Origin: Desulfuromonas sp.
GTDB lineage: Bacteria > Desulfobacterota > Desulfuromonadia > Desulfuromonadales > BM501
Direction of reading: 5' to 3'
NCBI RefSeq assembly: GCF_002868845.1
Contig: NZ_PKUB01000018.1
Location: forward strand, 45,807 to 109,806
DNA: 64,000 bases
The position numbers and the translations under genes were made by a program. The notes beneath the pieces are model-generated. The model was not told where the DNA came from. It did not search any database and saw only the letters and a list, made by a program, of their open reading frames with translations. How positions within the stretch are numbered: the stretch's first letter is position 1; every line of letters starts with the position of its first letter. This document shows positions 1,976 to 59,237 of this stretch, in pieces.

Positions 1976-3454
1976 ATGGGTCAGAATTATTTCAACACAC
2001 TGCCGTTGCGTCGTCAGCTGGAGGAACTCGGGACCTGCCATTTCATGGACAGCAGCGAGTTCAACGGCGTCGACTACCTCAAGGGGAAAAAGATCGTCGT
2101 CGTCGGCTGCGGCGCCCAGGGCCTGAACCAGGGCCTGAACATGCGCGACAGCGGTCTCGACGTCGCCTACGCCCTGCGCAAGGTCGAGATCGACGAAAAG
2201 CATATCTCCTGGCAGAACGCCACCGAGAACAACTTCGAGTTCGACACCATCGAAAACATGGTCCCCAAGGGCGACCTGGTCCTGAACCTGACCCCGGACA
2301 AGTACCATTCCCCGGTCGTTAACCACATTATGCCCCTGATGAAACAGGGTGCCTGCCTCTCCTATTCCCACGGCTTCAATATCGTCGAGGAAGGGATGCA
2401 GATCCGTAAGGACCTGACGGTTATCATGGTTGCGCCCAAGTCCCCCGGTTCGGAGGTTCGCGCCGAGTTCCTGCGCGGTTTCGGCGTGCCGACCCTGATC
2501 GCCGTCCACGGTGAGAACGATCCCAACGGCGACGGCCTCGATATCGCCAAGGCGTACTGCTGCGGTACCGGCGGCGACAAGGCCGGCGTGCTGCTGTCCT
2601 CCTTCGTGGCCGAAGTCAAATCGGACCTGATGGGCGAGCAGACCATCCTCTGCGGCGTGCTGCAGACCGGTTCCATCCTCTTCTACAACAAGATGGTCGC
2701 CTCCGGCATCGACTCCGGGTATGCCGCCAAGCTGATCCAGTACGGCTGGGAGACCACCACCGAAGCTCTCAAGCACGGCGGCATCACCAACATGATGGAC
2801 CGGCTCTCCAACCCGGCCAAGCTGAGGGCTTTCGCGCTGGCCGACGAACTGAAGGAGATCATGACTCCTCTGTTCGAGAAGCATATGGACGACATCATGT
2901 CCGGGCATTTCTCCGAGACCATGATGGCGGACTGGGCCAACAACGACGCGGACCTGCTGCGCTGGCGTGAAGAGACCAACAACGAGCCCTTTGAAAAAGC
3001 CGAAGCGCAGACCGCGGAGATCCCCGAGCAGGAGTACTTCGATAACGGCATCCTGATGGTGGCCATGGTCAAGGCGGGTGTCGAGCTGGCCTTCGACACC
3101 ATGGTGGCCGCCGGCATCAAGGAGGAGTCGGCCTACTACGAGTCGCTGCACGAGACGCCTCTGATCGCCAACGTCATCGCCAAGAAGAAGCTCTACGAGA
3201 TGAACAAGGTCATCTCCGACACGGCCGAGTACGGCTGCTACCTCTTCGCTCACGCCGCCGTGCCGCTGCTGAAGGACTTCATGGACACGGTCGGTACCGA
3301 CGTGATCGGCAAGGGGCTCGAGCTCAAGGACAACGGCGTCGACAACCAGATGCTGGTGGCCGTCAATGCCGAGATTCGCGGAACCCTGATCGAAGAGGTC
3401 GGCGAGGAACTGCGTGAGGTTATGGAGGGCATGCAGGCGATCGCCTCGGCCTGA
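1976..3454 (+). CDS. ilvC: ketol-acid reductoisomerase, long form (class II, ~491 aa type)
   Basis: 492 aa. The N-terminus NYFNTL.LR.QL..LG.C.FM...EF....[31 protein letters not shown] and the duplicated knotted domain length match the enterobacterial long-form KARI, not the ~335-aa class I form. Confidence 0.93.
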
Positions 3455-3700: not shown

Positions 3701-4456
3701 GTGTTGCACATGTCTTACCCACAGCACCTGGCCATTATTATGGATGGGAACGGCCGCTGGGCCGAACAACGCCGGTTGCCCCGGATTGCCGGGCATCGCA
3801 GGGGTGTGGAGACCGTTCAGGAAATCGTTAAGGAATGCCGTTCTCTTGGCATCCCCCACCTGACCCTCTACGCTTTCAGTTCGGAGAACTGGGGGCGTCC
3901 GCATGATGAGGTGGGAGCCCTCATGGAACTGCTCGGCCTCTTCCTGAAGAGGGAATTGCAGACTATGCTCGCCAACGACATCCGGCTGAAGGTCATCGGC
4001 GAGGTCGGGCGACTGCCCGGCAAGGTTCGCGAAATTCTGGAGCAGACCGTCTCCCGCACCGCCGCCAACTCTGGAATGGTCTTGACCCTCGCCCTTTCCT
4101 ACGGGGCCCGGAACGAACTGCTCCGGGCGGTGCGCGACGTCGCCGAGGAGGTGCGGGCGGGGAGGGTCGAGCCCGAAGCGATTGACGAGTCCTGCTTTGC
4201 CGGGCACCTGGATACCGCCGAGCTTCCCGACCCGGATTTCCTTATTCGCACCAGCGGCGAGATGCGCATCAGCAATTTCCTGCTCTGGCAACTTGCCTAT
4301 GCGGAACTCTACTTCACCGAAGCCCTGTGGCCCGATTTCAGCTCCCGGGAGTTGCACCGGGCCCTAGAGGAGTTCGGGCGCAGACAGAGACGCTTCGGCC
4401 TGACCGGCGCCCAGGTCCAAAAGCCGGCCCGGCGCCAGGGGGAGAAAAACCATTAA
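3701..4456 (+). CDS. uppS: undecaprenyl diphosphate synthase
   Basis: Contains HLAIIMDGNGRWA...RGHRRGV...LTLYAFSSENW...IRTSGEMRISNFLLWQLAYAELYF. The start may be GTG 3701 or ATG 3710. Confidence 0.92.
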   Translation: MLHMSYPQHLAIIMDGNGRWAEQRRLPRIAGHRRGVETVQEIVKECRSLGIPHLTLYAFSSENWGRPHDEVGALMELLGLFLKRELQTMLANDIRLKVIGEVGRLPGKVREILEQTVSRTAANSGMVLTLALSYGARNELLRAVRDVAEEVRAGRVEPEAIDESCFAGHLDTAELPDPDFLIRTSGEMRISNFLLWQLAYAELYFTEALWPDFSSRELHRALEEFGRRQRRFGLTGAQVQKPARRQGEKNH

Positions 4457-7767: not shown

Positions 7768-8483
7768 TGAACGAAGTCCTGCTGACCATCGACACCTCGA
7801 CCCAGGTGGGGAGCGTCGCCCTGTCCCGGGGAGAGGTGCTCCTAGGTGAAAATCTTCTCAACGGGCCGCGCACCCAGACCGACAGCGTTCTTGTCTCCAT
7901 TGGCCGGCTTCTCGAAGACGCTGGCCTCGGCATCGGAGATGTCGACGGCCTCGGCGTGGTCCTCGGGCCCGGCTCCTTCACCGGGGTCCGGGTGGGGGTT
8001 GCCAGCGTCAAGGGGCTGGCCCTGGCCACCGGAAAGCCGGTTTTCGGGGTCTCCTCGCTGAGGGCTCTGGCCCTGCAGGCCCCCGCGGCCCGACATCCGG
8101 TCTGCGCCTTGCTCGACGCCCGGAAAAAAGAGGTCTACGCCGGGGTCTACGGTTGGGAGCGCGGATTGCCCGCCCCCCTCGGTCCCGAGGCCGTGCTGCC
8201 CCCGGAAAAACTTCTCTCGGCGCTCGAGGGGGAGGTCCTGTTTCTCGGTGACGGGGCGACCGTCTATCGGACCCTCATCGCCCGGCAGATGGGCGATCGG
8301 GCCCACTTCGCGCCCTGGCCCCTTCACGCGCCCCGGGCCTCGAATGCCGCCGTTCTCGCCCTTCTGGAGATGAGAGAGGGCCGTTCCGTTCCCCTGGAGT
8401 TTCTCACCCCCAGCTATATTCGTCTCTCCGAGGCGGAAATCACTTGGGCAAGGCGTCGGGCCGAAGGGGTGATTGACGGTTGA
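7764..8483 (+). CDS. tsaB: tRNA t6A37 biosynthesis protein TsaB (YeaZ family)
   Basis: Reads LLTIDTSTQVGSVAL...GPGSFTGVRVGVASVKGLALA. It overlaps the rseP stop by 4 nt. Confidence 0.85.
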   Translation: MMNEVLLTIDTSTQVGSVALSRGEVLLGENLLNGPRTQTDSVLVSIGRLLEDAGLGIGDVDGLGVVLGPGSFTGVRVGVASVKGLALATGKPVFGVSSLRALALQAPAARHPVCALLDARKKEVYAGVYGWERGLPAPLGPEAVLPPEKLLSALEGEVLFLGDGATVYRTLIARQMGDRAHFAPWPLHAPRASNAAVLALLEMREGRSVPLEFLTPSYIRLSEAEITWARRRAEGVIDG

Positions 8484-8508: not shown

Positions 8509-8554
8509 AAAATATCGTTTCGGGTCTTATTAACCTTTTTCGTGGAGGTGCTCG

Positions 8555-8776
8555 ATGGAGGAAAGCGATCAGGCCTTTGTTCAACAACTGTTTGACAATA
8601 ATCCCCGCTTCCGGTTGCTCTACGAAGAACACCTTTTGCTCGAGAGGGAACTGGAGGACCTTGATCAAAGATCCTACTTGACGCCCGAAGAAGAAGTCGA
8701 AAGAAAAAAGGTGCAAAAAATGAAGCTGGCCGGCAAGGATGAGATGGAGCTAATCCTGAGCAAGTTCCGCCAGTGA
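8555..8776 (+). CDS. DUF465 (YdcH-like) small coiled-coil protein
   Basis: 73 aa. The pattern F..L...N..F..L...H..L...L..L.....L.P.EE.E...LKK.KL..KDEM is characteristic of DUF465. Confidence 0.7.
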   Translation: MEESDQAFVQQLFDNNPRFRLLYEEHLLLERELEDLDQRSYLTPEEEVERKKVQKMKLAGKDEMELILSKFRQ

Positions 8777-14682: not shown

Positions 14683-14791
14683 CCAAACGTTGTATGGCAT
14701 AGTCGAAAAAACGAGTCCCTTTCCCTCGGAAAGCTTAAAGTTTCTTGACATCCCGGGTGTTTGTCTGGTCTAGTGAATATAACAATTCTTT

Positions 14792-15042
14792 AAAGGCTGT
14801 GAAGAGGAGTAGTAGGCCCTGCCCCCTGTCTCAGAGAACCGGCGCTTGGTGCGAGTCGGTACAGGAGAGGGTCGAACTCGCCTCGGAGCCGCGAGGGTGA
14901 ACCGCCGGATCCCGTTCGGACCCAACTAGCCCTCGACGTGAACCTGCGTTAACGGTCAAAACAAGGGCCCTGCCTGCAGGGCCGAAACAGGGTGGTACCG
15001 CGAAGCGCAAGCTCTCGCCCCTGTACGGGGCGGGAGTTTTTT
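14792..15042 (+). promoter_or_regulatory. T-box leader RNA (Leu specifier CUC) with terminator, upstream of leuA
   Basis: T-box sequence AAACAGGGUGGUACCGCG lies at 14985-15002. Stem I elements are GA/K-turn-like GUGAAGAGGAGUAGUAGG, AGAGA at 14833-14837, and distal GGUGCGA. The specifier-loop GAA (14874-76) is followed by CUC (14877-79). The terminator has a 10-bp stem at 15012-15036 plus UUUUUU. Confidence 0.8.
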
Positions 15043-15245
15043 ATTTTGCGCGCTCCGGAATGACCCAACCCGCTGGCAGTCGATTCCTGTCAGCGGCTCT
15101 CCAAGCGAAAGGGGGTGGTGACGTGGAATCGGACCTAGGTGACCTGATGGCCTTAAAACAGTCGGTTAAACTGGAAACATTGATAAATCACGTGCTGCCC
15201 CATCCGGCCTGAATGGCCGTGGCGGAAGTCGAAAAAGGAGGCTCC

Positions 15246-16784
<1,539 letters not shown>

Positions 16785-18336: not shown

Positions 18337-18867
18337 ATGAAAAAAACCTTCGGCGGCCCGGCGATCTTCCTCGACCGGTCCGACATCAACACCGACGAGA
18401 TCATTCCCGCCAAGTACCTCACCGAGGTGACCAAGGAGGCCCTTCAGCCCTACATGCTCGAGGATCTCAAGCTCGAAGGCTTCGATCCCAAGGGGGAGAA
18501 ACTGAAGAACGCCCGGGTGGTCGTCAGCCGCGAGAATTTCGGCTGCGGCTCCTCCCGCGAGCACGCTCCCTGGGTCTTCGAGGTCAACGGGGTGCATACC
18601 ATCATCGCCCAGAGCTACGCCCGCATCTTCCGCCAGAACACTTTCAACGGCGGCATGCTCGCCATCGAGCTGCCGAAAGACGACCTCGACCGGCTCTTTG
18701 CTCTGGAGGGGGCAGGGGAGGTGGAGATCGCCGTCGATCTGGAGAAGCAGGCCGTCGTCGCCAAGGCCGGCGGCAAGACGGAGAGCTTCGCTTTCGAAAT
18801 CACCCCTTTCGACAAGGCCCTGGTGGAAGCCGGCGGCTGGGTGGAGTTCGCCGACGCGCGTTACTAG
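18337..18867 (+). CDS. leuD: 3-isopropylmalate dehydratase small subunit
   Basis: [28 protein letters not shown]...[16 protein letters not shown] 18337 is preceded by AAAGGAG. Confidence 0.93.
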
Positions 18868-18896
18868 CCGGCGGCAGATCGCAGGGAAGACCGAAG

Positions 18897-18932
18897 CGGG
18901 GGCCGGACGCCATGTCCGGCCCCCGTTTTTTT
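18897..18932 (+). terminator. intrinsic terminator after leuD
   Basis: Stem CGGGGGCCGGAC (18897-18908) / GTCCGGCCCCCG (18914-18925), then TTTTTTT. Confidence 0.85.
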
Positions 18933-19159
18933 CTCCCTTTCCGACCGAGGTCGGGGGAGAGGGTTCGATTTTCCCCACCGCCGGAATTACGGGGCCGAAG
19001 GGAAGGGGTGGGACCGTCGGGTTGTCGTAGGGTTTGGCCGAAGGGGACGCGGTTTGGCGCGCCCAAAAATTGGGAAGTGTTAGAAGAATGTAAGTATTAT
19101 CGAGGCTTTTTTAGTTTTAGATTGGGCGCTAAAACACCGTTAAAGAATAAACCACATAC

Positions 19160-19306
19160 CTCCGATAAGAGCAAAACCGGGGCAACCCGGCGACGCAATG
19201 CCACGGGTCCCGAAAGGGACGGCCGGGCTGCCGAAGAGAGTCGATTGCCCCGCTTTTGCCAGGGAGTATCTCTACCCGCCTTCGGATTCGAAGGCGGGTT
19301 TTTTTT
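19160..19306 (+). promoter_or_regulatory. candidate GEMM-I (cyclic-dinucleotide) riboswitch with intrinsic terminator
   Basis: AGAGCAAAACC (19168-19178) is followed by hairpin CCGGG-GCAA-CCCGG (19177-19190, GNRA loop). Next come CGACGCAAUGCC (19191-19202) and a long hairpin at 19200-19228 capped by GAAA. CUGCCGA follows at 19228-19234. The terminator is ACCCGCCTTCG/CGAAGGCGGGT (19274-19299) plus T7-8. These blocks match the conserved GEMM-I blocks GCAAA..CC[GNRA hairpin]GG.GACGCAAAGCC...CCGA as I recall them. The outer P1 helix was not resolved by eye. Confidence 0.55.
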
Positions 19307-19427
19307 CGAGTCGCATATTTTTCAGACGTTCAAGATGGTCGGTTTTTTGTCCTTTATAAAATACCTGACATCGTCTGAGTATCCCTCGCGGTGTAATCCC
19401 ACGGGGGGTAAAGCCGTGCCCCAAACC

Positions 19428-22400
19428 ATGAGAAATCCCATGCACTATTGGATGCGAACTTGCGTTGTCTTCTTGATGATTCTGTCGGGCTCCGTTTTTA
19501 CTGCCGCTGATGCAAGCGCGTCTTTGCTTTGCGACCGGACCTACGGAACATCCGGGGTCGATGCAAACCCGGGAAGCAATAACTCCGTGGTCGCTGGCCA
19601 TGAACGGTACGGGGCGGCGACGGCACAGCTTGACCTAAACACGAGCGCGGGCCGGTCGGAAGAGGGGCCGAGGGAGCTGGTTTTTATCGAGGGGGACGTC
19701 GCCGACTACCCGAGTCTGGTAGAAGGAAGGGCCCCTGGAAAAGAGTATTTCATCCTCAATCCGACCCTACCAGGTCTTGAGCAGGTCGCGAAGATCCTGG
19801 AGGGGAAAAGCGGCATCCGCACCCTTCACCTCGTCACCCACGGTTCGGAAGGGGGCATCCACCTGGGGACAGAAACCCTGACCGAAAAGAACCTCTTTGG
19901 ACACTCTGCCGCGCTGGAGGCTGTTGGCCGTGCCTTAGGCGGGGACGCCGAGATTCTGCTCTATGGCTGCAACGTGGCGAGGGGCGCGCGCGGTGCGTCC
20001 TTTGTCTCGGCACTGGCCGAGGCGACCGGTGCAACCGTCGCGGCTTCGACCGACATCACCGGATCCCGGGACGGGGGGGGCGATAGCGTACTGGAATTCT
20101 CCACCGGCAGGGTCACGAGTGAGGTGCTCGCTGGTCTGAGCCGTTATTCCCACACCCTGGTTGCATCCACCACGACCTATACCTTCGACTCCGATAAGGA
20201 GGGCTGGACGGGTGATCGTTTTGGGTGGTGGGATGGTGCTATCTCTGCCCCCACAAACTCCCCTATCATCAACCTTGCCCCCCCGGCAGCGGCCTACATT
20301 CAGAGCCTTCAGATTCGCTCTTATCTGGGTACCGGGAATAACTTTACACTGCGGGTCTCTTACCAAGGCAGCGTGGTCTACTCGACCACAATCACGTACA
20401 CACAAACCGCTTATTCCACTTTGACGATCAACCAGAATGTCGATCGTTTGGAATTTGAAATTTCGGGAGCCGGCAATGGGTGGATGTACCCGGAAATCGA
20501 TAATGTCGTCACGCAAGGCGTAGTAAATCTCAACGCCCCCCCGACGGCCGCCAACAACACCGTCTACCCCCTCGCGGGGGAGGGCTTTGGCTTCAATGCG
20601 TCCCATTTCGGGTACCAAGACGCCGACGGCGACCCCCTGGCCAAGGTGACCATCGTCACCGTGCCGGCTGCAGGGACTTTGGTGATACCCGCTGAAGGTG
20701 GGAGGGAGAGAACCCTTACCAATGGCGCGACAGTCACCAAGGAGGAACTCGCCGCCGGCAGCCTGAGATACACCCCGAGCGGGAGCACCGACTCCTCCTT
20801 CACCTTCAAGGTCAACGACGGCACCGACGACAGCGTCGCCACCTATACCATGACCCTTGACGTCGTCTCCGCCCCGAAGATCACCGGGGTCTCCTCGACG
20901 ACTGCCGACGGCACCTATAAGGCCGGCGACACGGTGGCGGTGACCGTCACCTTCGACCAGGCGGTCACCGTGACCGGGGCGCCCCAGCTGACCCTGGAGA
21001 CCGGCGCCACCGACGCGGTCGTGAACTACGCCTCCGGCTCGGGGGCGAACACCCTGACCTTCAATTACACCGTTGCGGCGGGCCACGCCAGTGTTGATCT
21101 CGACTACACCGGAACCGCCGCCCTCGCCCTCAACGCCGGCACCATCAGGGGGGAAGGCAACATCGACGCGGTCCTGACCCTTGCCTCCCCGGGGGCCTCG
21201 GGCTCCCTCGGGGCCGGCAAGGCGATCGTGATCGACGGCGTCAAGCCCACCGTTTCCTCGGTCAGCGTCCCCGCCGCCGGCACCTACGGCGTCTTCGACA
21301 CCCTCGACTTCACCGTCACCTTCGGCGAGCCGGTCACCGTTAGCGGGACGGCCTCGAAACTCGGGCTGACCGTGGGCAGCATTTCCAAGGAGGCGTCTTA
21401 CCTGTCGAGCGAAGGTGCCTCGGTGGTCTACCGGTACACGGTGCAGGACGGCGACGACGACGGGGACGGCATCTCCGTAGGGGCCCTCGCCCTGAACCAC
21501 GGCTCCATCGTGGATGGGGCCGGCAACGCCGCCGATCTGACCCTGAACAGCGTCGGCGACACCTCCGGGGTCCTCGTGGGCAGCGCCTCCATCGGCGACC
21601 TCGTCTGGAACGACTCGAACGGCAACGGAGCGCGGGACGGCGGCGAAACCGGCATCGACGGCGTCACGATAGACCTCATCGCTGATGCCAACGAAAACGG
21701 GCGAATTGACGGCGGAGAATCTGCCGTGGATACTGCGACCACCGCCGTCGGCGGGGCCTACGACTTTACCAATCTCCCCGCCGGCAAATACGTCGTCGAC
21801 GTTACCGACACCGAGGGCGTCCTCGACGGCTACAATGTGACTACCGACAACGACCCCCTGGCCGTGACCCTGGCCTCCGGTGAGGATTCCAACGTCGCCG
21901 ACTTCGGCTACAAACCGGCCGACTCCACCGCCCCGACCCTGGCCGAGGTGACCAAGGTGGACACCCCGACAAAGAACACCACCCCTTCGTACACCTTCAG
22001 CACCGACGAGGCCGGCACCCTCGCCGTCGGCGGCAGCTGCGGCACCAGCAGCAGCACCTCCGTTGCCGCGGGGAACGTTACCGTCACCCTGACCAAACCC
22101 GATAACCACAGCGCCTTGGCCGACGGGAGCTACGACGACTGCACCTTGAAGGTCACCGACGCTGCGAACAATTCCAGCGAGGCCCTCGCCATTTCGACCT
22201 TCACCATCGACACCAAGGCCCCGACGGCGAGCATCGGTGCGCCCGACGTTCAGCTCACCCGTGGCGGGCCGGTCAGCTACACCGTCACCTACGCAGGGGC
22301 CGACAGCGTCTCGCTGGCCGCCGGCGACGTCACCCTGTCCACCACGGGGACGGCCAGCGGCTCCGTCGAGGTCTCCGGCACAGGTACACAGAGCCGAACC

Positions 22401-25400
22401 GTGAAGATCACCTCCGTTACCGGAAGCGGCACCCTCGGGATCAGCCTCGCCGCCGACACCGCGGCCGACGCGGCCGGCAACAGCGCTGCGGCCGCCGGCC
22501 CGAGCGCCACCGTATTCGTGGACAACGCCGCGCCGGCGATCCAGAGCGCGACTTTCGACAGCGATTACATCAACGCCGCCGGCGCCGCCGCGGTCAGCTT
22601 CACCCTCGGCGCCGCCGAGGTGGAGGCCGACTACAGCTACACCATCACCTCCGGCGACTGCGGCAGCAACGTCCAATCCAGCCTTCCCCTCGAAGGCCTG
22701 CCGAACTGCCAGGTCAGCGGCGCCGGCACTGTGACCTCGGGGACTCTTCAGGTCGGGTCGATCGACGTGAGCGGCCTGGCCGACGGCACCCTGACCCTGA
22801 GCGGGACCCTGACCGACAAGGCGGGCAACAGCGCCGACCCGGTCACCGACACGGCGATCAAGGACACCGTCGCCCCGGGCGTTTTCTCCGTGGCGATCGA
22901 TCAGGAGCGCATCAACGCTGCCAACGCCAAGGCGATGAGTTTCACCTTTGGCGGGGCCGAGGTCGACACGACCTATGTATATACGGTTGAATCTGACAAA
23001 GGCGGAAAACCGGTAATTGGAAAGGGCCCTTTGAAAAGCGCCGACCAAACACTCGGTTCCATCGACGTGAGCGGTCTGAGCGACGGCACCCTGACCCTGG
23101 TCGTGATCCTGGCCGATGCGGCCGGCAACGTGAGCAAGAAGGCCGTCACCGAAGTCATCAAGGACGCCAGTGCCCCGGGCATGAAAGGGGTCACCATCGA
23201 CCAGCAGCTGATCAACGCGGCCACGAGCCGCGCCCTGAGCTTCACCCTCAGCGGGGCTGAGGTGGGGGCCAGCTTCGACTACACCATGACATCCAGCGGC
23301 TGCGGGAACAACGCGCTGACCAGCACCCACCAACCCCAACCGGCCTGCGGCGACGTCTTCGGCAGCGGCACGGTGTCGATGTCCCCGCAGAAGGTCGCTC
23401 AGGTCGACGTGAGCGGCCTTCCCGATGGCACCCTGACCCTGACCGTCACCCTGGCGGACAAGTTCGGCAACAAGAGCAAGCCGTATACCGGCCAGGTCGA
23501 AAAGGACGCCTCCGCGCCCGGCCAGCACTCGGTGGCGATCGACCAGCAGACGATCAACGCCGGCAACTCCACGATGATGTCTTTCACCTTCAGCAGCGCC
23601 GAGGTGGGCGCTATCTACAGCTATACGGTCACCTCCGGCGGCAGTTCGAACAAAACCCCGGCCCATCTAGCCAACGCCCCTGCTCCGGTCGTTAGCGGGA
23701 AGGGCACGGTCCAGGGAGCCACCGAGACCATAAAGGGGATCGACGTGTCCCAATTGGCCGACGGCACTCTGACCCTAAGCGTGACCCTCTCCGACAAGGC
23801 GGACAATGTCGCCGCCCCGGTCACCGACACGGCGACAAAAGACACCGTTGCTCCCGATGCCCCTTCGGTCCCCGACCTGGTGCAGGATAGCGACACCGGC
23901 GCTTCGAACGCTGACGACGTGACCGCCGACAACACCCCCACCTTCAGCGGCACCGCCGAACCGGGTGCCACGGTGTCTGTCCATTTCGTGCTTCAGGCAA
24001 ACAATGCCCCCATCCAGCATGGCGGTCCCGTTCCGTTCAAGCTGCAGCCCACGACCGTCGCCGACGGCGACGGGGAATGGACCCTGACTCTTTCCGAGCA
24101 GGCCGGCGGCGACTACGCGGTTTACGCCACCGCCGTCGACACCGCAGGCAATGGGAGCAACGAGTCGAAGTCGATCAGCGTGACCATCGACACGACCTCG
24201 CCGGAGCAGCCCGCCGGGGCTCTCAGCGTCGCCGAGAACGCGGCCAAGGGAACGGCTGTCGGCACCGTGACCGCCAAAGAGGCCTTGGGCTTCTCCCTCG
24301 CGGACGACGCCGATGGGCGCTTCGCCATCGACTCTGCCGGTTCGGTCACCGTCGTCGACGATAACAAGCTCGACTACGAGACGAGCACGAGCCACGACAT
24401 CACCGTCGTCGCCTCCGACCTTGCCGGCAACCAGAGCAAGGCCGTCCTGAGCGTCACCGTGACCAACGTCAACGAGGCCCCGACCCTCGAAACGGAGATC
24501 CCCGACCAGCCTGCGGTCGAGGACCAGAAGTTCCATTTCGCGGTTCCGCAAGGGACCTTCGCCGACGAGGACGCCGGGGACAGCCTGACCCTGAGCGCAA
24601 CCCTGGCCGATGGCGGGGCACTGCCGGCGTGGCTCGGTTTCGCTCACGACGCCTTCAGCGGCACCCCGGGCAACGACGAGGTCGGGGTTCTGGAGATCAA
24701 GGTGACCGGCACTGACGGCCGCAGCGCCTCGGTCTCCGATACCTTCAAGATCACCGTGGCCAACGTCAATGACGCCCCGACCGTGGCCATGCCGATCTCC
24801 GACCAGCCGGCGAACGAAGACGAGAAGTTTAACTTCGCCGTTCCGCAGGGGACCTTCGCCGACGTGGACGCCGGTGACAGCCTGACCTTGAGCGCCACCC
24901 TGGCCGATGGCGGGGCGCTGCCGGCGTGGCTCGCTTTCGAGCAGAACACCTTCAGCGGCACCCCGGCCAACGACGACGTCGGCATCCTGGCGGTCAAGGT
25001 GACCGCCACCGACGGCAACAGCGCTTCGGTTTCCGATACCTTCGAGATTACCGTGGCGAACGTCAACGATGCCCCGACCGTGGCGGCGCCGATTCCCGAC
25101 ATGCCGGCCATCGAGGATGAGCGTTTCTCCTTCATCGTGCCCGCCGGGACCTTCGCAGACGATGACGAAGGCGATACCCTGACCCTGAACTCTGCCCTGG
25201 CCGACGGCTCGGCGCTGCCTGCGTGGCTTGGTTTCGCTAACGGCACCTTTAGCGGTACCCCGACCAACGACGATGTCGGGGCCCTGGAGGTGAAGGTGAG
25301 TGCCACCGACGGCAGCAATGCCTCGGTCTCCGACACCTTCGTGATCACCGTGGCCAACGTCAACGACGCCCCCATCGTGGCGACACCGATCGCCGACCAA

Positions 25401-27734
25401 CCGGCGACCGAGGACGAGCCTTTCGCCTTCGCCGTGCCGGAGGGGACCTTCGCCGACGAGGACGAAGGCGACAGCCTGACCCTGGTGGCCACCCTGGCCG
25501 ACGGTTCGGCGCTGCCGGCGTGGCTGGCTTTCGAACAGAACACCTTTACCGGCACCCCTACAAACGACGACGTCGGCATCCTGGAGGTCAAGGTGACCGC
25601 CACCGACGGCAACAGCGCTTCGGTTTCCGATACCTTCGAGATTACCGTGGCGAATGTCAACGACGCCCCGACCGTGGAGACGGAAATCCCTGACCTGCCG
25701 GCGACCGAGGACGAGCCCTTTGTCTTCACCGTGCCGGCCGGGTCCTTTGCCGACGTGGACGAAGGAGACACCCTGATACTGGACGCCACCCTGGCCGACG
25801 GTTCAGCGCTGCCGGCGTGGCTGGCCTTCGAACAGAACACCTTTACCGGCACCCCTACAAACGACGACGTCGCCATCCTGGAGGTCAAGGTGACCGCCAC
25901 CGACGGGGAGGGCGCCACGGTCTCCGACACCTTCGTCATTACCGTGATCAACGTCAACGACCCGCCGGTCGCTGGGGACGACACGGTCTCCACCAGGGAG
26001 GACAACAGCGTGACCTTCTCGCCCCTGGGTAACGACGGCGACGTGGACAGCGCCGTTCTGACCGTGGCGAGTGTTTCCAAGGCGGCCCACGGCAGTGTCA
26101 GCATGGGTCAGGACGGAACCGTTACCTACGCCCCTGTTGCAAACTATAACGGCCCGGACAGCTTCTCCTACACCGTCAGCGACGGGAAGGCGACCGACAG
26201 CGCCACGGTGAGCGTCACCGTCACCGCGGTCAACGACCGGCCGGTGATCACCGGGCAGGCCTTCGAACTCAGCGTCGCCCAAGGGGGCAGCCTCACCCTG
26301 GCCGTCACCGACCTGCTTGTGACGGACCCCGACGACACTGCCTTCACCCTCGGGGTGCGCGACGGCCTGCGCTACAGCGTCAACGGCACGACCGTGACCG
26401 CCGCAGCCGGCGCCAAAGGAACCCTGACAGTCCCGGTGGCGGTCCACGACGGCACTACCGCCAGCGAATTCTTCGCCGTCACCCTCATCGTCACCGACGG
26501 CACCGCCCCGACGGTCACTGCCGACCCGGCAGGCGGGCTCTTCAAGGACGATGTGAGCGTGATCCTGTCGGCCGAGGACAACGAGGATGCCAACCCGACC
26601 ATCACCTACAGCCTCGACGGGGGCGCCCCGGCGACTCCCTATGACGGCGGCGCCATCCATATCGAGGAGAGCCTGACCCTGCGCTTCGCTGCCGAGGACG
26701 CCGACGGCAACCGCAGCGCGACGGCCGAGGCGGCCTTCACCATCGACCTTGAGGCGCCGGTCATCGTCCTGTCCACCCTGGCCGATGGCAGCGTCACCGC
26801 CGAAGAGGTCCTCAACGTCTCCGGCACCGTCACCGACGATGTCGGCGTGAAGGGCCTGACCGTCAACGAGCAGGAGGTTCTCCTCGGCTCCGACGGCAGC
26901 TTCAGCGCCGCGGTCGCCCTCGAGGAGGGGGCCAACAGCGTCACCGCCCTGGCCACCGATCAGGTCGGGCGACAGGCGAGCCAGACCTTCAGCGTGACCC
27001 GGGACGCCAAGGCCCCCCAACTGACCGTTACCGCTCCGGCCGATGGCAGCGTGGTCGACAGGGAGCTGGTCACGGTGAGCGGAAGCGCCGATGAGGGCGC
27101 GACCGTGACCGTCGCACTCAACGGCGGGGACGCCGAGCAGGCCGTGAGGGTCGGGGACAAGTTCTCCGCGACTGTCACCCTGCAGCCCGGCATGAACACC
27201 ATCTCCGTGGCCGCCCAAGCCAAGGGCAAGACGAGCAGCGCCAAGCGTTCGGTCACCCTGGGCGAAAAGCAGCTCAGCCTGGCGATCACCGACCCGGCCA
27301 AGGACGGAGCGGTCTACCGCAAGAGCATGACCCTGAAGGGGACCGTGAATAGTTCCGACCCGGAGAAGGTGACAGTCACCGTCGGCGAGACGACCCATTC
27401 CCCGAAACTCAGCGAGAGCGGCGCCTTCGAACAGGAGTTGACCTTCCCGAAGGCCGGAACCTTCTCCGTGATCGTTACCGCCACGGACGCCTCGGGAGAG
27501 ACCGTCAGCGCGGTGCGCAACGTCATCTACGACCCGCCGATCCTCATGGACGTCAACGGGGACGGAAAGGTCACCCCGCTGGACGTGCTGCTCGTGATCA
27601 ACTTCCTCAACAATAACGGATCCTCTCCGACCCCGAAGGCGTTTGCCGCAGGGGATGTCAACCACGACGGTTACATCACCGCCATTGACGCCCTGATGAT
27701 CATCAATCACCTCAACTCCGGGTCAGGTGGTTAA
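19428..27734 (+). CDS. giant secreted multi-repeat adhesin-like protein (DUF4347 + Ig-like + SdrD/Cna-B-like + cadherin-like repeats + C-terminal dockerin-type module)
   Basis: Signal peptide [32 protein letters not shown] 19416 and ATG 19440/19452 are alternative starts. The track start at 18912 is rejected because that stretch contains two terminators and the riboswitch. Domain content is read from the translation (see sub-features). Length is 2,768 aa from ATG 19428. Confidence 0.9.
19674..20066 (+). other. DUF4347-like N-terminal module of the giant protein
   Basis: [16 protein letters not shown]....[16 protein letters not shown]....[18 protein letters not shown]...L........L...[37 protein letters not shown] follows the DUF4347 pattern seen at N-termini of very large repetitive proteins. 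Confidence 0.6.
21591..21915 (+). other. SdrD B-like / Cna-B-type domain
   Basis: [30 protein letters not shown]....NG..D.....[22 protein letters not shown]. Confidence 0.6.
22552..23860 (+). repeat. four tandem ~100-115-aa Ig-like repeats (in-frame, coding)
   Basis: The repeating unit is (V/F)(A/T)IDQ..INA.N...MSFTF..AEV...Y.YT..S...[variable]..G.GTV......[21 protein letters not shown]......T...KD..AP. Unit starts are near 22552, 22891, 23190 and 23533. Confidence 0.75.
24465..25970 (+). repeat. five tandem ~297-300-bp dystroglycan-type cadherin-like repeats (in-frame, coding)
   Basis: Each unit reads PI.DQPA.EDE.F.F.VP.GTFAD.D.GD.LTL.ATLADG.ALPAWL.F....[37 protein letters not shown]. The VANVNDAP boundaries lie near 24770, 25060, 25355, 25655 and 25950. 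Units 2, 4 and 5 share long near-identical DNA stretches. Confidence 0.85.
27549..27731 (+). other. dockerin type I-like duplicated Ca-binding segment (C-terminus of giant protein)
   Basis: [22 protein letters not shown]...(14-aa linker)...[23 protein letters not shown]. There are two DxNxDGxxxxxD loops, each followed by a helix, which is the dockerin repeat architecture. Confidence 0.75.
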
Positions 27735-27812
27735 GGGGACCCCTTCGTTCGCTCCGCCCCGTGAGCCGGGGCGGAAAACACAACAGGATCACGGGGGCGT
27801 CCCCGTTGAACG

Positions 27813-29015
27813 ATGCGAAAAGGAATACACCAGATGAGAAACAGAGGACTGAAACAGATCGCGACCCTCCTGCTCCTACTCGGCTTCGGCCTGCTGACCG
27901 CCTGCGGCGGTGGCGGCGGGGGAGGGGATGGCTCCGGCTCTCTCACCGAGGTAGGCGGCACCGTCTCCAAGGGCCCGGTGGCTGGTGCGGCCGTGGCCAT
28001 CTACGCCCTTGACGAGGTGGGAGTGAAGGGCGAGCTGCTCGCCGAGGCGACCACTGACGGTAGCGGCGCATACCTCGCCGATCTCGGCGAGTACGAGGGT
28101 CCGGTCCTTGCCGAGGCGACCGGCGGCAGCTACCTCGACGAGGGGAGCGGCGAGACATTGAGCATCCCGGCGGACGCCTCACTGCGAGCGGTCCACTCGG
28201 CGGCCAGCGGGGTTGTGACCCTGCACGTGAGCGGACTGACCGAGCTGGCGGTGCAGGTCGCCGAGGCCGCAGGCCTCTCCCTCGAGACGATCGCCGCCGC
28301 CTACGATCAGCTCGAAGAGGTCTTCGGCTTCGAGGCCGAGACGACGGCGCCGGTCGCACCCGTCTCCGCCGCCCTGGCCGGTGCCAGTGACGCCGAGGTC
28401 GACTACGCCCTGACCCTGGCGACCCTCTCCCGGCTCGCTTTCGACTGGAACCTGGACTTCGACGCTCTGCTCGCCGAGTTGGCCGATGAACTGGCAGTCG
28501 ACGGGGTCCTGAGCGCCGCGACCCTGGCTGCCTTCGACGCGGCCGCGGCGGCCCTGCTCGACCCGGAGAACCCGGACAACGCCACCGGCCTAGCGGGAAC
28601 GGCCGGCACCGGACTGGCCTCCGTGGGACGCACCCCGGCGACCCTGACCCTCTTCGTCGGGGGGGACCTTCCGGCCGGGAGCATCGGCGCCCTGCAGCTC
28701 AACCTGGTGATTCCGGAAGAGGCCTTCGTCGCTTTGGATGCAGAAGGGGAGGCCGACGTCACCCTCCTCGCTGAGGGGATCGACCCCGATTGGGGCTGGG
28801 GGGCCTTCTGGGACATGGCCGCCGGGACCCTCAATCTGACCTTCCTCAGTTTCGAGGGGTTAGGCTCGGGGGAGCTGGTGACGATCGATCTCGACCTGGT
28901 ACTTGGGGACGAGGTTGCGGCCGAGGATTTCGTCCCCACAAACGTGGTTGCCCTCGATCCCCTCGTTGCCGAACTCGACGATGTCGAATTCGAACTGGAA
29001 CTGGTGACAGAGTAG
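27813..29015 (+). CDS. lipoprotein with Gly-rich linker, CarboxypepD_reg-like N-domain and cohesin-like C-terminal region
   Basis: Signal peptide plus lipobox LLTA|C (Gly at +2), then GGGGGGGDGSGS. GGTVSKGPVAGAAVAIYALD..G.....ATTDGSGAY is a carboxypeptidase-regulatory-like fold pattern. The start is ATG 27813 or ATG 27834. It begins 79-100 nt after the giant gene. Confidence 0.8.
   Translation: MRKGIHQMRNRGLKQIATLLLLLGFGLLTACGGGGGGGDGSGSLTEVGGTVSKGPVAGAAVAIYALDEVGVKGELLAEATTDGSGAYLADLGEYEGPVLAEATGGSYLDEGSGETLSIPADASLRAVHSAASGVVTLHVSGLTELAVQVAEAAGLSLETIAAAYDQLEEVFGFEAETTAPVAPVSAALAGASDAEVDYALTLATLSRLAFDWNLDFDALLAELADELAVDGVLSAATLAAFDAAAAALLDPENPDNATGLAGTAGTGLASVGRTPATLTLFVGGDLPAGSIGALQLNLVIPEEAFVALDAEGEADVTLLAEGIDPDWGWGAFWDMAAGTLNLTFLSFEGLGSGELVTIDLDLVLGDEVAAEDFVPTNVVALDPLVAELDDVEFELELVTE
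28635..29012 (+). other. cohesin-like beta-sandwich candidate (C-terminal ~125 aa of the lipoprotein)
   Basis: PATLTLFVGGDLPAGSIGALQLNLVIPEEAFVALD...GTLNLTFLSFEGLGSGELVTIDLDLVLGD. The alternating hydrophobic beta pattern resembles cohesin blocks (I.a.qf.l.yd / g.i.f.f.....g.G.l..i.f.v). This is a by-eye judgement only. Confidence 0.35.
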
Positions 29016-37494: not shown

Positions 37495-39546
37495 TCAGGC
37501 GTGGGGACTCGTCTTCGGCATGCCTGTGTCCCGGAAGAGGTCGATGAAGGACTTGGCCACCCTGGGGTCAAACTGTGCCCAGGCTTGGCTCTCGATCTCA
37601 AGGAGGGCGGTTTGGTGGGAGAGGGCGCTGCGATAGGGGCGGTCGGAGGTCATGGCGTCATAGGTGTCGGCCACGGCGAGAATGCGCGCCTCGATGAGCA
37701 ACTCTTCCCCCCGGAGGCCGTAGGGATAGCCGGCGCCGTCGTAACGTTCGTGATGTTGGGCGATGATATCCCGAACTCCGTCCAGGAACTCGATCGGCTC
37801 CAGGATGCGGACCCCGATGACCGGGTGCTGCTGCAACAGGCCAACGTCTTCCTCGGAGAGAACGCCCTTTTTATGTAGCAGTTCTATGGCGATGCCGATC
37901 TTACCGACGTCGTGGAGAATGGCGGCTTGTTCCAGGCGGCGCAGGGCGGCCTGCCGCATGCCGAGGTGACGGGCGAGGGCGAGGCTGTAGCGGGTGACCC
38001 GTTCGGAGTGGCCGCTGGTGTAGGCGTCGCTCGCCTCGATGGCCGAAACGAGGGCCTGTACTGTGTTCAGGTATGTGTTCTGCTGTTCCCGGTAGAGACG
38101 GACGTTGTAAATGGCCACGCTGGCCTGGTTGGAAATGGTCGAAAGAAGGTCCAGGTCCTCGTTGGTGAAGGAAGACATGTCCGTCTTGTTGGTGATGGTG
38201 ATGGTGCCGATCACCTCAGCCTTGATGACCAGGGGCGCACAGATGACTGTTTCGTTGGTGAAGCCGAAGGGGCCGTCAGCGGCGTCCTGGAGTTGGTCGT
38301 CGCTGGTGATCAGCAAGGGCTTCCGGTCCTCGATCACCCGGTGGGATATGTTGACAGCCCTCGGAGGGAGATGGGCTCCGGGGTTTTGCCTCTCGGGCAG
38401 GCCGACGGCGTTGACGAGGCGGAGTTCTTTCGGGTTTTGGCCCAACAGAAGGATATAGCCAGCTTGGGCCTGGAGGGTTTCCAGGGTTTTTTTGATCAGG
38501 AGGGGGAAGAGGGTTTCCAACTCCCGGGCCGAGTTAATGGTCAAACCCATCTCGTTGAGGGCCGACAAGCGGGTGACCGCCTGTCGAAGGGTGGTGTTTT
38601 TGGCCTCCAGGTCTCCGGCCAGGTCGGCGATCTTGAGGTTGGCGCTCTCGATCTCCTCGATTCGGCTCTCGAGGGTGGTATTAAGATATTCGATCTCCCG
38701 GAGGCGCTCTTCCAGGGTGAGGTTCATGTTGTGGATCTCTTCGTGGTAGGCGAGCTTCTCCTGGGAGACGGTGATTTCCTTTTCCTGGCGGAGCTTGGTC
38801 TCGATAAGGCTCTTGAGGCGGTCCACCATCTGGTTGAATTTTGAGGAGAGGAGGGACATCTCTGCGGAGCTGTCAATGGCCGTGGTCGCATGCTCGAAAT
38901 CCCCCTGTTCCAGATGCTGCATTCCCGCCACCAGTTTGCGGATGGGAAGGTCCACGTAGACGAGGATGAACAGCGTGATGGAGAGCATCAGAACCAGGAG
39001 CATGACGGCTGAGGATGTCAGCGCTGCCGAGCGGCTTTCGTCCCGCAGGGGATCGAGGGCGCTCATAGAGAGGTGCATATTGAGAACGCCGAGCACCTGG
39101 CGGGCAGGTTCGTGACAGCTGTGGCACGCCTGCGTGTTGTGGATGGGAAGCAGGGTGACGTGGTATTCCTTTCCCATGATCTTTTTGGAGATAAAGGGTT
39201 TTCCGGATCGGAACCCGAGGAATTCAGCCGTCGGCACGGAGTCGCCGATCTCTTCCGGTTGCGCGGAGATGAGGATCCGGCCGGTCTCATCGAAGATGCG
39301 CACAGTTTCGAAAGCCGGTTCTTTGTGGATTTTCTCCAGGATCGTGGGCACCTCTATGCTCTGTCCGTTGGTCATGTGGGCGATGATGACATTGCGGACG
39401 GTCTCCCCCAGGAGTTGGGAGTCCTGGGTGATGACCTGGGAGAGGGCGGATTTTTGGCTATGAAGGTTTTGCCACGCGGAAAGGCCGAGGGTGAGGACGA
39501 GGAGGACTGCGGTCAGACCCAGGATTTTGATTTTGAGCGAATTCAT
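37495..39546 (-). CDS. membrane sensor HD-GYP phosphodiesterase (TM - periplasmic CXXCH domain - TM - HAMP - coiled coil - GAF - HD-GYP)
   Basis: N-terminal TM (LGLTAVLLVLTLGLSA). The periplasmic segment contains ACHSCH. A second TM (AVMLLVLMLSITLFILVYV) is followed by a HAMP-like region (PIRKLVAGMQHLEQGDF), a long heptad region, a GAF-like region, and HD-GYP motifs (HDVGKIGI ... HHERYDGAGYPYGL). Confidence 0.85.
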   Translation of the reverse strand: MNSLKIKILGLTAVLLVLTLGLSAWQNLHSQKSALSQVITQDSQLLGETVRNVIIAHMTNGQSIEVPTILEKIHKEPAFETVRIFDETGRILISAQPEEIGDSVPTAEFLGFRSGKPFISKKIMGKEYHVTLLPIHNTQACHSCHEPARQVLGVLNMHLSMSALDPLRDESRSAALTSSAVMLLVLMLSITLFILVYVDLPIRKLVAGMQHLEQGDFEHATTAIDSSAEMSLLSSKFNQMVDRLKSLIETKLRQEKEITVSQEKLAYHEEIHNMNLTLEERLREIEYLNTTLESRIEEIESANLKIADLAGDLEAKNTTLRQAVTRLSALNEMGLTINSARELETLFPLLIKKTLETLQAQAGYILLLGQNPKELRLVNAVGLPERQNPGAHLPPRAVNISHRVIEDRKPLLITSDDQLQDAADGPFGFTNETVICAPLVIKAEVIGTITITNKTDMSSFTNEDLDLLSTISNQASVAIYNVRLYREQQNTYLNTVQALVSAIEASDAYTSGHSERVTRYSLALARHLGMRQAALRRLEQAAILHDVGKIGIAIELLHKKGVLSEEDVGLLQQHPVIGVRILEPIEFLDGVRDIIAQHHERYDGAGYPYGLRGEELLIEARILAVADTYDAMTSDRPYRSALSHQTALLEIESQAWAQFDPRVAKSFIDLFRDTGMPKTSPHA

Positions 39547-58626: not shown

Positions 58627-59237
58627 TTGAAAAAACAATTGGCATTGCGGGTCCAGTGTTTTCTATCCTGTGGTGGAGTCTACTCGAAGGCCCCGGTAAC
58701 AGATCATGATCGATCTGTTCCGGTAGCGTATCTTTCGTTTCCGACCCTTGGGGAGATTCATGTTGCTCTCTCCCTGCGGATAGAAGGGTTTTACAAGGTA
58801 TGCCGGGCCACGCAATGCCAATTTCAATTTCGCTCCGGGATGCCGTTCTCCTTCTTGCGGTTTTGACCTTGAATTTATCGTCTGCCTCTGAAAATCACTT
58901 CAGGCGTCCCACTCGGAGGTGGGCTGGCTCACCGCGATTTTGGCCGAGGTCTCAAGCTTGCGGTCTGTTGGTCAACCCCCCAAGGCCGCAAATCGAACAT
59001 CCCAGAGAATGTCAAAGAGCTTTTTGATTGAACTTGATTTCATGGTAGCATATGCGCAGATTCTGTCAAAGGGGCCCGTGAGTTTTTTTGATGGTCCCTT
59101 TCGAAGTCCCGCCTTCCGCCAGCAGTAATATGTCACGTATCCAACCATGGCGATGGGAATCGTGATCCACTTGTCTGGTCGAGGTGCTTGAACCCCTGGG
59201 GGACTTTTGCTTGACTTTTCTTCGAAGGAACGGATCG

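Follow-up and report, generated by a model that had tools for sequence, protein, structure and literature searches.

The leader of a gene for a giant adhesin-like secreted protein of Desulfuromonas sp. contains an element (19160-19238) which, as judged from its sequence and its alignment with homologues, is best explained as a functional riboswitch for cyclic dinucleotides that has the GEMM-I fold and carries the GEMM-Ib signature. The element was found with a standard Rfam model in a DNA stretch of 64 kb, referred to as the window; coordinates are counted from the first letter of this stretch, and the features described lie on its + strand unless marked otherwise. The most likely ligand is 3',3'-cGAMP (cyclic GMP-AMP), and cyclic di-GMP (c-di-GMP) or a response to both dinucleotides is also possible. 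Taken as a whole, the locus is best explained by a GEMM-Ib-signature riboswitch that would act with OFF logic through the intrinsic terminator at 19274-19306, an explanation given roughly an even chance of being right.

The class is already known, the GEMM-I fold since 2008 and its cGAMP subtype since 2015, and the element answers no open question by itself. Its mildly unusual features are a separate terminator with probable OFF wiring, an inserted anti-aptamer strand and two mismatches flanking the ligand pocket. If the proposed reading is true, the cGAMP-riboswitch regulon would reach beyond the cytochromes and pili of Geobacter and include a giant adhesin of the cadherin/dockerin type in Desulfuromonas. 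A further natural aptamer with adenine at position 20 (A20) and unusual pocket-flanking mismatches would also become available for studying how the selectivity between cGAMP and c-di-GMP is tuned.

Family assignment and structure of the aptamer

All 4227 Rfam models were scanned over the window at their gathering thresholds, and three matches were obtained. One of them, RF01051 (c-di-GMP-I), lies at 19160-19235 (+) and covers model positions 1-87 of 87 with 59.0 bits against a gathering threshold of 35 (E = 5.4e-9 for 64 kb and both strands). The GEMM-I identity proposed by eye in the initial annotation of this DNA is thereby borne out. The sequence blocks listed there are all present, namely AGAGCAAAACC at 19168-19178, the hairpin CCGGG-GCAA-CCCGG at 19177-19190 and CGACGCAAUGCC at 19191-19202. 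The long bulged hairpin capped by GAAA is present as well; it occupies 19199-19229 and is followed by UGCCGAA.

Two variant families of the same clan (CL00126) were considered and rejected. RF03168 (c-di-GMP-I-UAU) places the aptamer in the same register as RF01051 and gives 58.0 bits, which is under its gathering threshold of 65.9; the aptamer has A and not U at position 20 and C and not U at position 92. RF03167 (c-di-GMP-I-GGC) yields no match at the gathering threshold, and the aptamer reads GCAAU with A19197, not G, at the position of A47. The two close relatives of the window leader, metagenomic loci L075 and L123, reach 65-68 bits on RF03167. Because the signature positions of the aptamer are A, A and C, and not U, A, U as in the UAU family or G, G, C as in the GGC family, the scores on RF03168 and RF03167 are attributed to common ancestry of the scaffold and not to a variant binding site. 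The score on RF03168 is owed to the P1a hairpin (CCGGGG-NNAA-CCCGG) and the short P1b, which resemble that model.

The architecture is that of GEMM-I: P1a with its GNRA tetraloop and P1b are adjacent, a 2-bp helix joins them, and P1 closes the whole. Covariation was assessed on relatives collected by a metagenome pattern scan on the common 3' strand of P1b. The scan returned 120 loci, and 105 relatives were aligned together with the window by MAFFT. Since the P1b 3' strand and the C92 region are fixed by the search pattern, the informative parts are P1, the 2-bp helix and P1a. Over the whole structure, 88.7% of the alignment cells were paired, as compared with 76.6% in shuffles and 29-45% with a slid partner, and compensatory cells numbered 316 versus 97 in shuffles.

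The outer helix P1, for which no convincing candidate had been found by eye in the initial annotation, does exist. Its 5' strand CUCCG (19160-19164) pairs with 19232-33 and 19236-38, forming G19164-C19232, C19163-G19233, C19162-G19236, U19161-A19237 and C19160-G19238 with A19234/35 bulged. The RF03167 consensus structure, as seen in close relatives, likewise pairs the CG of the conserved 5' CCGA with the CG of the 3' CCGAA. This register covaries across the 105 relatives, with compensatory changes at five of the seven pairs of P1 (helix 1). Taken alone, P1 is weak (duplex -1.4 kcal/mol), as is usual for helices that depend on ligand (PMC9262584).

In the alignment, pairing in helices 2 and 3 reaches 93-97%, with compensatory changes at all 8 pairs. 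The 2-bp helix G19171-C19196/C19172-G19195 encloses P1a (19176-19191), which consists of five Watson-Crick pairs (19177-81/19186-90), the GNRA loop GCAA (19182-85) and an A19176.C19191 mismatch. A19176 had been regarded as an extra A in the GCAAA block. The nucleotide is indeed there; it is not surplus but forms the first position of the P1a stem, where relatives typically have a C-G pair and L123 has A-U. In P1b (P2/P3; 19199-19229, GAAA cap at 19212-15), the closing U19199.U19229 replaces the usual A-U; this column holds A in 102 of the 106 sequences, and U solely in the window and in locus L052. A third inverted repeat lies within the aptamer: GGCAACCCGGC at 19181-19191 is 91% complementary to GCCGGGCUGCC at 19222-19232, and it could provide an alternative ligand-free pairing of the P1a 3' strand with the P1b 3' strand and the C92 region.

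Ligand-contacting bases and the probable ligand

In the numbering of the Vc2 riboswitch, G20 stands directly 5' of the 2-bp helix G21-C22/G45-C46, A47 follows C46, and C92 precedes the 3' strand of P1 (PMC6140456). The position equivalent to G20, which reads the alpha base of the ligand, is occupied in the window by A19170 (RF01051 model position 11; the U of the UAU model). This assignment, already suggested by eye-alignment, is the same in the RF01051, RF03168 and 106-sequence MAFFT alignments. The aptamer therefore lacks the G at position 20 that makes the c-di-GMP-specific contact; G is found in this column in 96 and A in 8 of the 106 aligned sequences. The adenine equivalent to A47, which intercalates between the ligand bases, is A19197 by the RF01051 alignment, and A is found there in 106/106 sequences. 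The C92 column, which the initial annotation had advised inspecting, holds C19231 in RF01051 and RF03168; this cytosine pairs in Watson-Crick fashion with the ligand's beta guanine, and its invariance among the relatives, being fixed by the search pattern, carries no independent weight.

GEMM-Ib is defined by an adenine in place of G20 together with the retained C92 and A47 (PMC6140456). On these bases, A at position 20 assigns the aptamer to the GEMM-Ib subclass and does not put it outside the GEMM-I fold family. With Vc2 of Vibrio cholerae (3IRW) the aptamer shares P1, the 2-bp helix, the GNRA hairpin P1a, P1b, A47 and C92 (PMC6140456). It differs in having A for G20, a GCAA tetraloop and a short P1b without the 11-nt receptor; furthermore, Vc2 is thought to act on translation (PMC9262584).

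The closest characterised systems are the GEMM-Ib riboswitches of Geobacter, namely Gs1761/pgcA of G. sulfurreducens (PDB 4YAZ) and pilM and Gmet_0970 of G. metallireducens. They have the same fold as the window aptamer and the same triad of A at the G20 position (A14 in Gs1761), intercalating A and guanine-pairing C. The 3' strand GACNGCCGGGCUGCCGAA is common to them and the window, the hosts belong to related orders, and the Geobacter elements are likewise followed by an intrinsic terminator and located upstream of an extracellular or surface gene. The pgcA-like metagenomic loci L085 and L096 align together with the window aptamer. The junction, however, reads AAGA-GC in the window and AAUA-CU in Geobacter GEMM-Ib, and the window differs further in the A.C at the base of P1a, the U.U at the base of P2 and the added anti-aptamer strand. 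The L085 contig (Ga0134124_10004787) was found to carry five GEMM-I aptamers in 10.9 kb (655-731, 3356-3435, 3701-3779, 8318-8394 and 8518-8594), including two tandem pairs about 200-350 nt apart; one of the five is the pgcA-like A20 aptamer and precedes the gene for a secreted protein of NlpC/P60-like type.

The Desulfuromonas host belongs to the relatives of Geobacter, a group whose A20 (GEMM-Ib) subclass was shown to sense 3',3'-cGAMP (PMC6140456, PMC6456294). In Gs1761, the adenine at the G20 site pairs with the adenine of the ligand (PMC6140456), and the pgcA riboswitch is about 1200-fold selective for cGAMP (PMC6456294). Because A20 variants can bind c-di-GMP too, cGAMP is inferred here as the probable ligand and not as a certain one.

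Several points weigh against cGAMP selectivity and support the rival view that A20 is a tolerated variant and that the aptamer senses c-di-GMP, or c-di-GMP together with cGAMP. A20 does not guarantee cGAMP selectivity: the G20A mutant of Vc2 takes c-di-GMP (53 nM) and cGAMP (120 nM) about equally, by way of adenine protonation; Cbe 1-2, an A20 aptamer found in nature, has dual specificity, and c-di-GMP is bound even by Gs1761 (PMC6140456). Position 20 has been termed a selectivity factor and not a hard filter, and point mutations in lower P2 alter selectivity (PMC9262584). Both unusual mismatches, A19176.C19191 and U19199.U19229, adjoin the pocket, and the latter lies in this selectivity-altering part of P2 (PMC9262584). 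No GGDEF motif, and thus no GGDEF or Hypr GGDEF gene, was found in any frame of the window, to which the search for a cGAMP synthase was confined. On the other side, the natural A20 aptamers of the Geobacter group, pgcA among them, were found to be cGAMP-selective (PMC6456294), and with G at position 20 in 91% of the relatives the A is a marked departure, which is common to the pgcA-like L085 and L096. The c-di-GMP or dual-ligand view is thus regarded as distinctly the less likely of the two.

The cGAMP synthases of the Hypr GGDEF type, such as GacA, combine Ser348 with the GGDEF motif. Hypr GGDEFs are reported from Geobacter, myxobacteria and other deltaproteobacteria (PMC6456294). The window itself encodes, at 37495-39546 (-), a sensor protein of 683 amino acids with an Mcp40H-like sensor, HAMP, GAF and HD-GYP (HD_5) domains. 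This protein, encoded about 18 kb away from the riboswitch, is a candidate phosphodiesterase for cyclic dinucleotides; among the HD-GYP enzymes there are phosphodiesterases specific for cGAMP.

Terminator, putative switching strands and proposed direction of regulation

The intrinsic terminator placed at 19274-19306 in the initial annotation is confirmed, with a predicted energy of -21.1 kcal/mol. Its perfect 11-bp stem (19274-84/19289-99) encloses the loop GAUU and is followed by the U-tract 19300-06 (U7-8). The hairpin starts 38 nt 3' of the aptamer without overlapping it, is compatible with the folded aptamer and is formed in every predicted state. CUUCGG occupies 19280-85 in its 5' arm, and L075 and L123 preserve the motif CCCRYYUUCGG. 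The terminator becomes the minimum free energy (MFE) fold once 6 nt of the 3' arm have emerged. A thermodynamic antiterminator was accordingly rejected, as no upstream segment outcompetes the terminator.

Two strands between the aptamer core and the terminator are of interest as possible switching elements. The aptamer tail, including the 3' strand of P1 (CCGAAGAGAG, 19231-19240), is a putative switching strand on the grounds of its complementarity and its identity in homologues, and it is unchanged in the leaders of L075 and L123. Besides its place in P1 and the ligand pocket, it has the option of pairing CCGAAG with CUUCGG at 19280-85 and AGAG with CUCU at 19270-73 (duplex -8.7 kcal/mol). 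The other, designated strand X (UUGCCCCGCUUUUGC followed by CAGGGAG, 19245-19266), is complementary to 19171-85 (14/15) and to 19159-63, so that it could act as an anti-aptamer strand. With the 5' half of the aptamer it forms a 15-nt inverted repeat (I1) of 93% complementarity, extended by the pairing of GGGAG 19262-66 with CCUCC 19159-63.

The X:aptamer duplex has an energy of -21.2 to -25.9 kcal/mol, and this helix, together with the terminator, dominates the ligand-free MFE fold. The RNAduplex energies of X or of the tail with their partners are mostly like those of shuffles in this GC-rich sequence; the pairing of X with the aptamer 5' half stands out (7/500 RNAduplex shuffles), and in a contiguous-pairing test 0.5% of the spacer shuffles matched as well. 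The fold constrained to contain the aptamer lies 10.6 kcal/mol above the X-paired minimum, a gap that could roughly be repaid by ligand binding at nM affinity. Most of X (19246-61) is a 16-nt insertion relative to the L075 and L123 leaders and is found in the window leader only. Since X is missing in these two relatives, it cannot be the core of the ancestral switch. A pairing of X with the ribosome-binding region (19376-19412, -25.4 kcal/mol) was also considered and was dropped as not significant (78/500 shuffles).

A convincing terminator was found in 61 of the metagenomic leaders. The 3' half of the aptamer serves as the terminator 5' arm in 31 of the 61 (the pgcA-like ON layout); the A20 loci L085 and L096 belong to this group, with a terminator that begins at -19. 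The remaining 30/61 have a separate terminator, as in the window, and in 8 of these 30 leaders, including the A20-type L012, the tail or P1 3' strand is clearly complementary to the terminator 5' arm (p <= 0.035). The closest relatives of the window, L075 and L123, are both A20 and share with it the tail GGCUGCCGAAGAGAG. Both keep UUCGG although its pairing within each terminator differs or hardly exists; the conservation of UUCGG in spite of a differing 3'-arm partner indicates that it also pairs elsewhere, with the invariant CCGAA of the tail. Before the 3' arm appears, the co-transcriptional MFE fold of L075 contains the tail:5'-arm helix; at full length the aptamer and the terminator are both formed, as in a textbook OFF switch.

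Strands resembling X were detected at p <= 0.005 in 4/27 leaders (the window, L018, L067 and L087). In the latter three, all of G20 type, the spacer carries a strand of 10-12 nt complementary to the aptamer 5' half or to P1a. This distribution suggests, on sequence grounds, that the anti-aptamer strand is a recurrent module.

The arrangement is read most coherently as that of an OFF switch, a direction proposed with moderate confidence. With ligand bound, the tail CCGAAGAG, which comprises C92 and the P1 3' strand, would be locked in the aptamer; the 5' arm of the terminator would be left to pair with the 3' arm, and transcription would halt before the adhesin gene. Without ligand, P1 would be too weak to hold, and X (19245-66) would invade the 5' half of the aptamer, perhaps by first pairing its UUGC with the GCAA loop, which would be undocked. 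A freed CCGA strand, either the tail 19231-36 or the 5' strand 19161-65 nested with the X helix, would then pair with CUUCGG of the upper 5' arm; with CUUCGG occupied before the 3' arm emerges, the polymerase would read through. The coexistence of the separate terminator with the aptamer in the predicted folds supports the OFF direction, as do the tail and the UUCGG arm common to L075 and L123. What the sequence establishes is the aptamer with its key bases and helices, the terminator, and the complementarities with their conservation; the ligand, the direction and the kinetic role of X are all inferred.

The OFF model has a precedent in Cd1 of Clostridioides difficile, a c-di-GMP-I OFF switch in which the aptamer and a separate downstream terminator can likewise coexist. 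The antiterminator of Cd1 is formed by the C92-region tail with the terminator 5' strand (PMC9262584), a pairing that is proposed for the window and is clear in L075, L012 and L032. Unlike the window aptamer, Cd1 carries G20 and responds to c-di-GMP. It forms a long, stable antiterminator, whereas that of the window would comprise only 6 + 4 bp, and it has no separate anti-aptamer strand comparable to X.

A more specific version, a cGAMP OFF switch by 'double strand capture' in which, without ligand, the aptamer 5' half is captured by X and the freed CCGA tail by the terminator 5' arm, is put forward tentatively; X would then possibly be a diverged copy of the terminator arm. Its polarity would be opposite to that of every characterised GEMM-Ib riboswitch. 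A search of one literature library found no published GEMM-Ib OFF switch, which does not prove that there is none. If the OFF direction is true, one subclass would be wired in both directions, with cGAMP repressing as well as inducing surface functions. If the double capture is true, high cGAMP would shut down a giant dockerin-bearing adhesin, which would fit with cGAMP favouring transient over permanent attachment.

Several points speak against the OFF direction. The candidate antiterminators are too unstable to compete: they have energies of -8.7 and -7.0 kcal/mol, and the terminator reaches -21.1 kcal/mol. Since the terminator is the MFE fold once 6 nt of the 3' arm are out, read-through would depend on kinetics alone. 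In the window sequence taken by itself, the complementarity of the tail to the 5' arm is not significant (p = 0.16; 189/500 RNAduplex shuffles). A pseudoknot would result if the tail:arm and X:aptamer helices were both present. Adhesins are usually induced and not repressed by cyclic dinucleotides. Every GEMM-Ib switch characterised in Geobacter works in the ON direction (PMC6456294).

The last two points speak for an ON switch like those of Geobacter pgcA and pilM, in which the adhesin would be induced by the dinucleotide and released X would serve as a decoy antiterminator. According to this alternative, the ligand-free state would combine the terminator with pairing of X to the aptamer 5' half, and the ligand would free X for the terminator 3' arm; CCCGCUUUUG (19249-58) would pair with CGAAGGCGGG (19289-98), and this pairing would continue into the upper 5' arm. 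X does resemble the terminator 5' arm (CCCCGCUUUUG versus ACCCGCCUUCG), its 10-bp helix with the 3' arm has an energy of -14.6 kcal/mol, and the extended alternative fold reaches -20.0 kcal/mol. The ligand-free MFE fold, with both the X:aptamer helix and the terminator, is what such a switch would require, and in G. sulfurreducens all genes behind GEMM-Ib switches fall without cGAMP synthesis (PMC6456294). In pgcA and pilM, however, the 3' half of the aptamer is itself the terminator 5' arm (PMC9262584, PMC6456294), a layout common in GEMM-Ib without being part of its definition, whereas the window has a separate hairpin 38 nt downstream. The true 5' arm sits between X and the 3' arm, adjoins the latter and pairs with it more strongly; the terminator fold beats the X:3'-arm fold by 9.4 kcal/mol, the ON model has no kinetic advantage, and in the ligand-bound state nothing sequesters the terminator 5' arm. 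Moreover, L075 and L123 have no X and yet possess the same tail and terminator arm. The ON switch is therefore considered unlikely, although it keeps an appreciable share of the probability.

It could also be supposed that the terminator is constitutive, as an attenuator or as the end of a short leader RNA, and that the adhesin gene is mainly expressed from an unrecognised promoter in the AT-rich segment 19307-19427 with little riboswitch control. The terminator wins all thermodynamic comparisons, no sigma-70-like promoter was detected across 18600-19700, and an AT-rich leader of 134 nt follows the terminator. Such a view is hard to reconcile with the high score of the aptamer and its entirely intact ligand-contacting bases, with the identical leader in a second strain (L131) and with the X:aptamer and tail:arm pairings, which are non-random or conserved; an aptamer and terminator directly upstream of surface-protein genes are, besides, the norm for the GEMM-I family. 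It is accordingly held improbable, and the OFF model is retained as the preferred reading.

Gene context of the leader

The proteins of the window correspond, by exact look-ups, to PLX85089-PLX85123 of a Desulfuromonas sp. metagenome-assembled genome (MAG), on a contig of 189 kb. The gene order is T-box leader, leuA, leuC, leuD, terminator, riboswitch leader, a gene for about 2764 amino acids, an open reading frame (ORF) of 400 amino acids, leuB and asd. The leuD gene was identified by its Pfam Aconitase_C match and P0029. The terminator behind leuD, from which the adhesin leader had been said to start, is real: a GC-rich 16-bp hairpin at about 18892-18928 is followed by U7 (whole feature 18892-18935; -46.3 kcal/mol, z = -5.3), and this leuA-leuC-leuD terminator forms the 5' boundary of the leader.

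The regulated gene (19440-27734) encodes an adhesin-like giant secreted protein, recognised by its Pfam domains and signal peptide. Besides the latter, it contains DUF4347, cadherin-like, five He_PIG, Big, SdrD_B and glucodextranase-B-like domains, with a dockerin at the C-terminus. Strain L131 is 99.84% identical to the window over 20.5 kb and has the same adhesin gene. Position 19429 is T in the window and G in L131 (L131 11092-11104 = window 19428-19440). Because this substitution removes ATG 19428 and creates the Shine-Dalgarno sequence AGGAG 8 nt 5' of ATG 19440, the start codon is probably ATG 19440 and not ATG 19428, giving 2764 amino acids as in the L131 gene call; in the window, a Shine-Dalgarno-like sequence lies at 19427-31. 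The distance from the terminator to the start is therefore about 134 nt, somewhat longer than the approximately 120 nt given in the initial annotation.

The relatives with about 90% identical LeuD (L002-L010) have unrelated genes 3' of leuD. Because other genes occupy that place in these relatives, the sequence comparison suggests that the adhesin gene, its riboswitch leader and the 400-residue ORF, which stand between leuD and leuB, are a lineage-specific insertion into the leu cluster. The N-terminal 400 amino acids of the adhesin have no close homologue in the protein collection (best match 40% identity, DUF4347 only), and one locus of 52% identity in a Syntrophales MAG carries no riboswitch. 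L131 is the sole syntenic contig; it belongs to the same species, and its identical leader offers no informative variation. The ORF of 400 amino acids (27813-29015) that follows the adhesin gene has no Pfam match; the span compared with L002-L010 was 18868-29015. Within the adhesin gene, internal repeats of about 300 bp with about 81% identity lie at 24454-25980, in the region of the He_PIG/cadherin-like repeats.

Between the riboswitch terminator and the adhesin start, an AT-rich stretch contains a hairpin UCAGACG/CGUCUGA (19324-19330 with 19372-19378) and a second one, formed by UAUCCCUCG with CGGGGGGUA at 19380-19412; the fold of the terminator-to-start segment is not significant (z = -1.45). 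The other two Rfam matches in the window are a 6S/SsrS RNA at 58828-59011 (-), which with 48.0 bits is slightly over the gathering threshold of 46.4 (RF00013), and a T-box leader at 14790-15025 (+; RF00230, 127.6 bits against 93). The T-box is located directly 5' of leuA (15213-16784), and the leu cluster is therefore under tRNA-sensing control.

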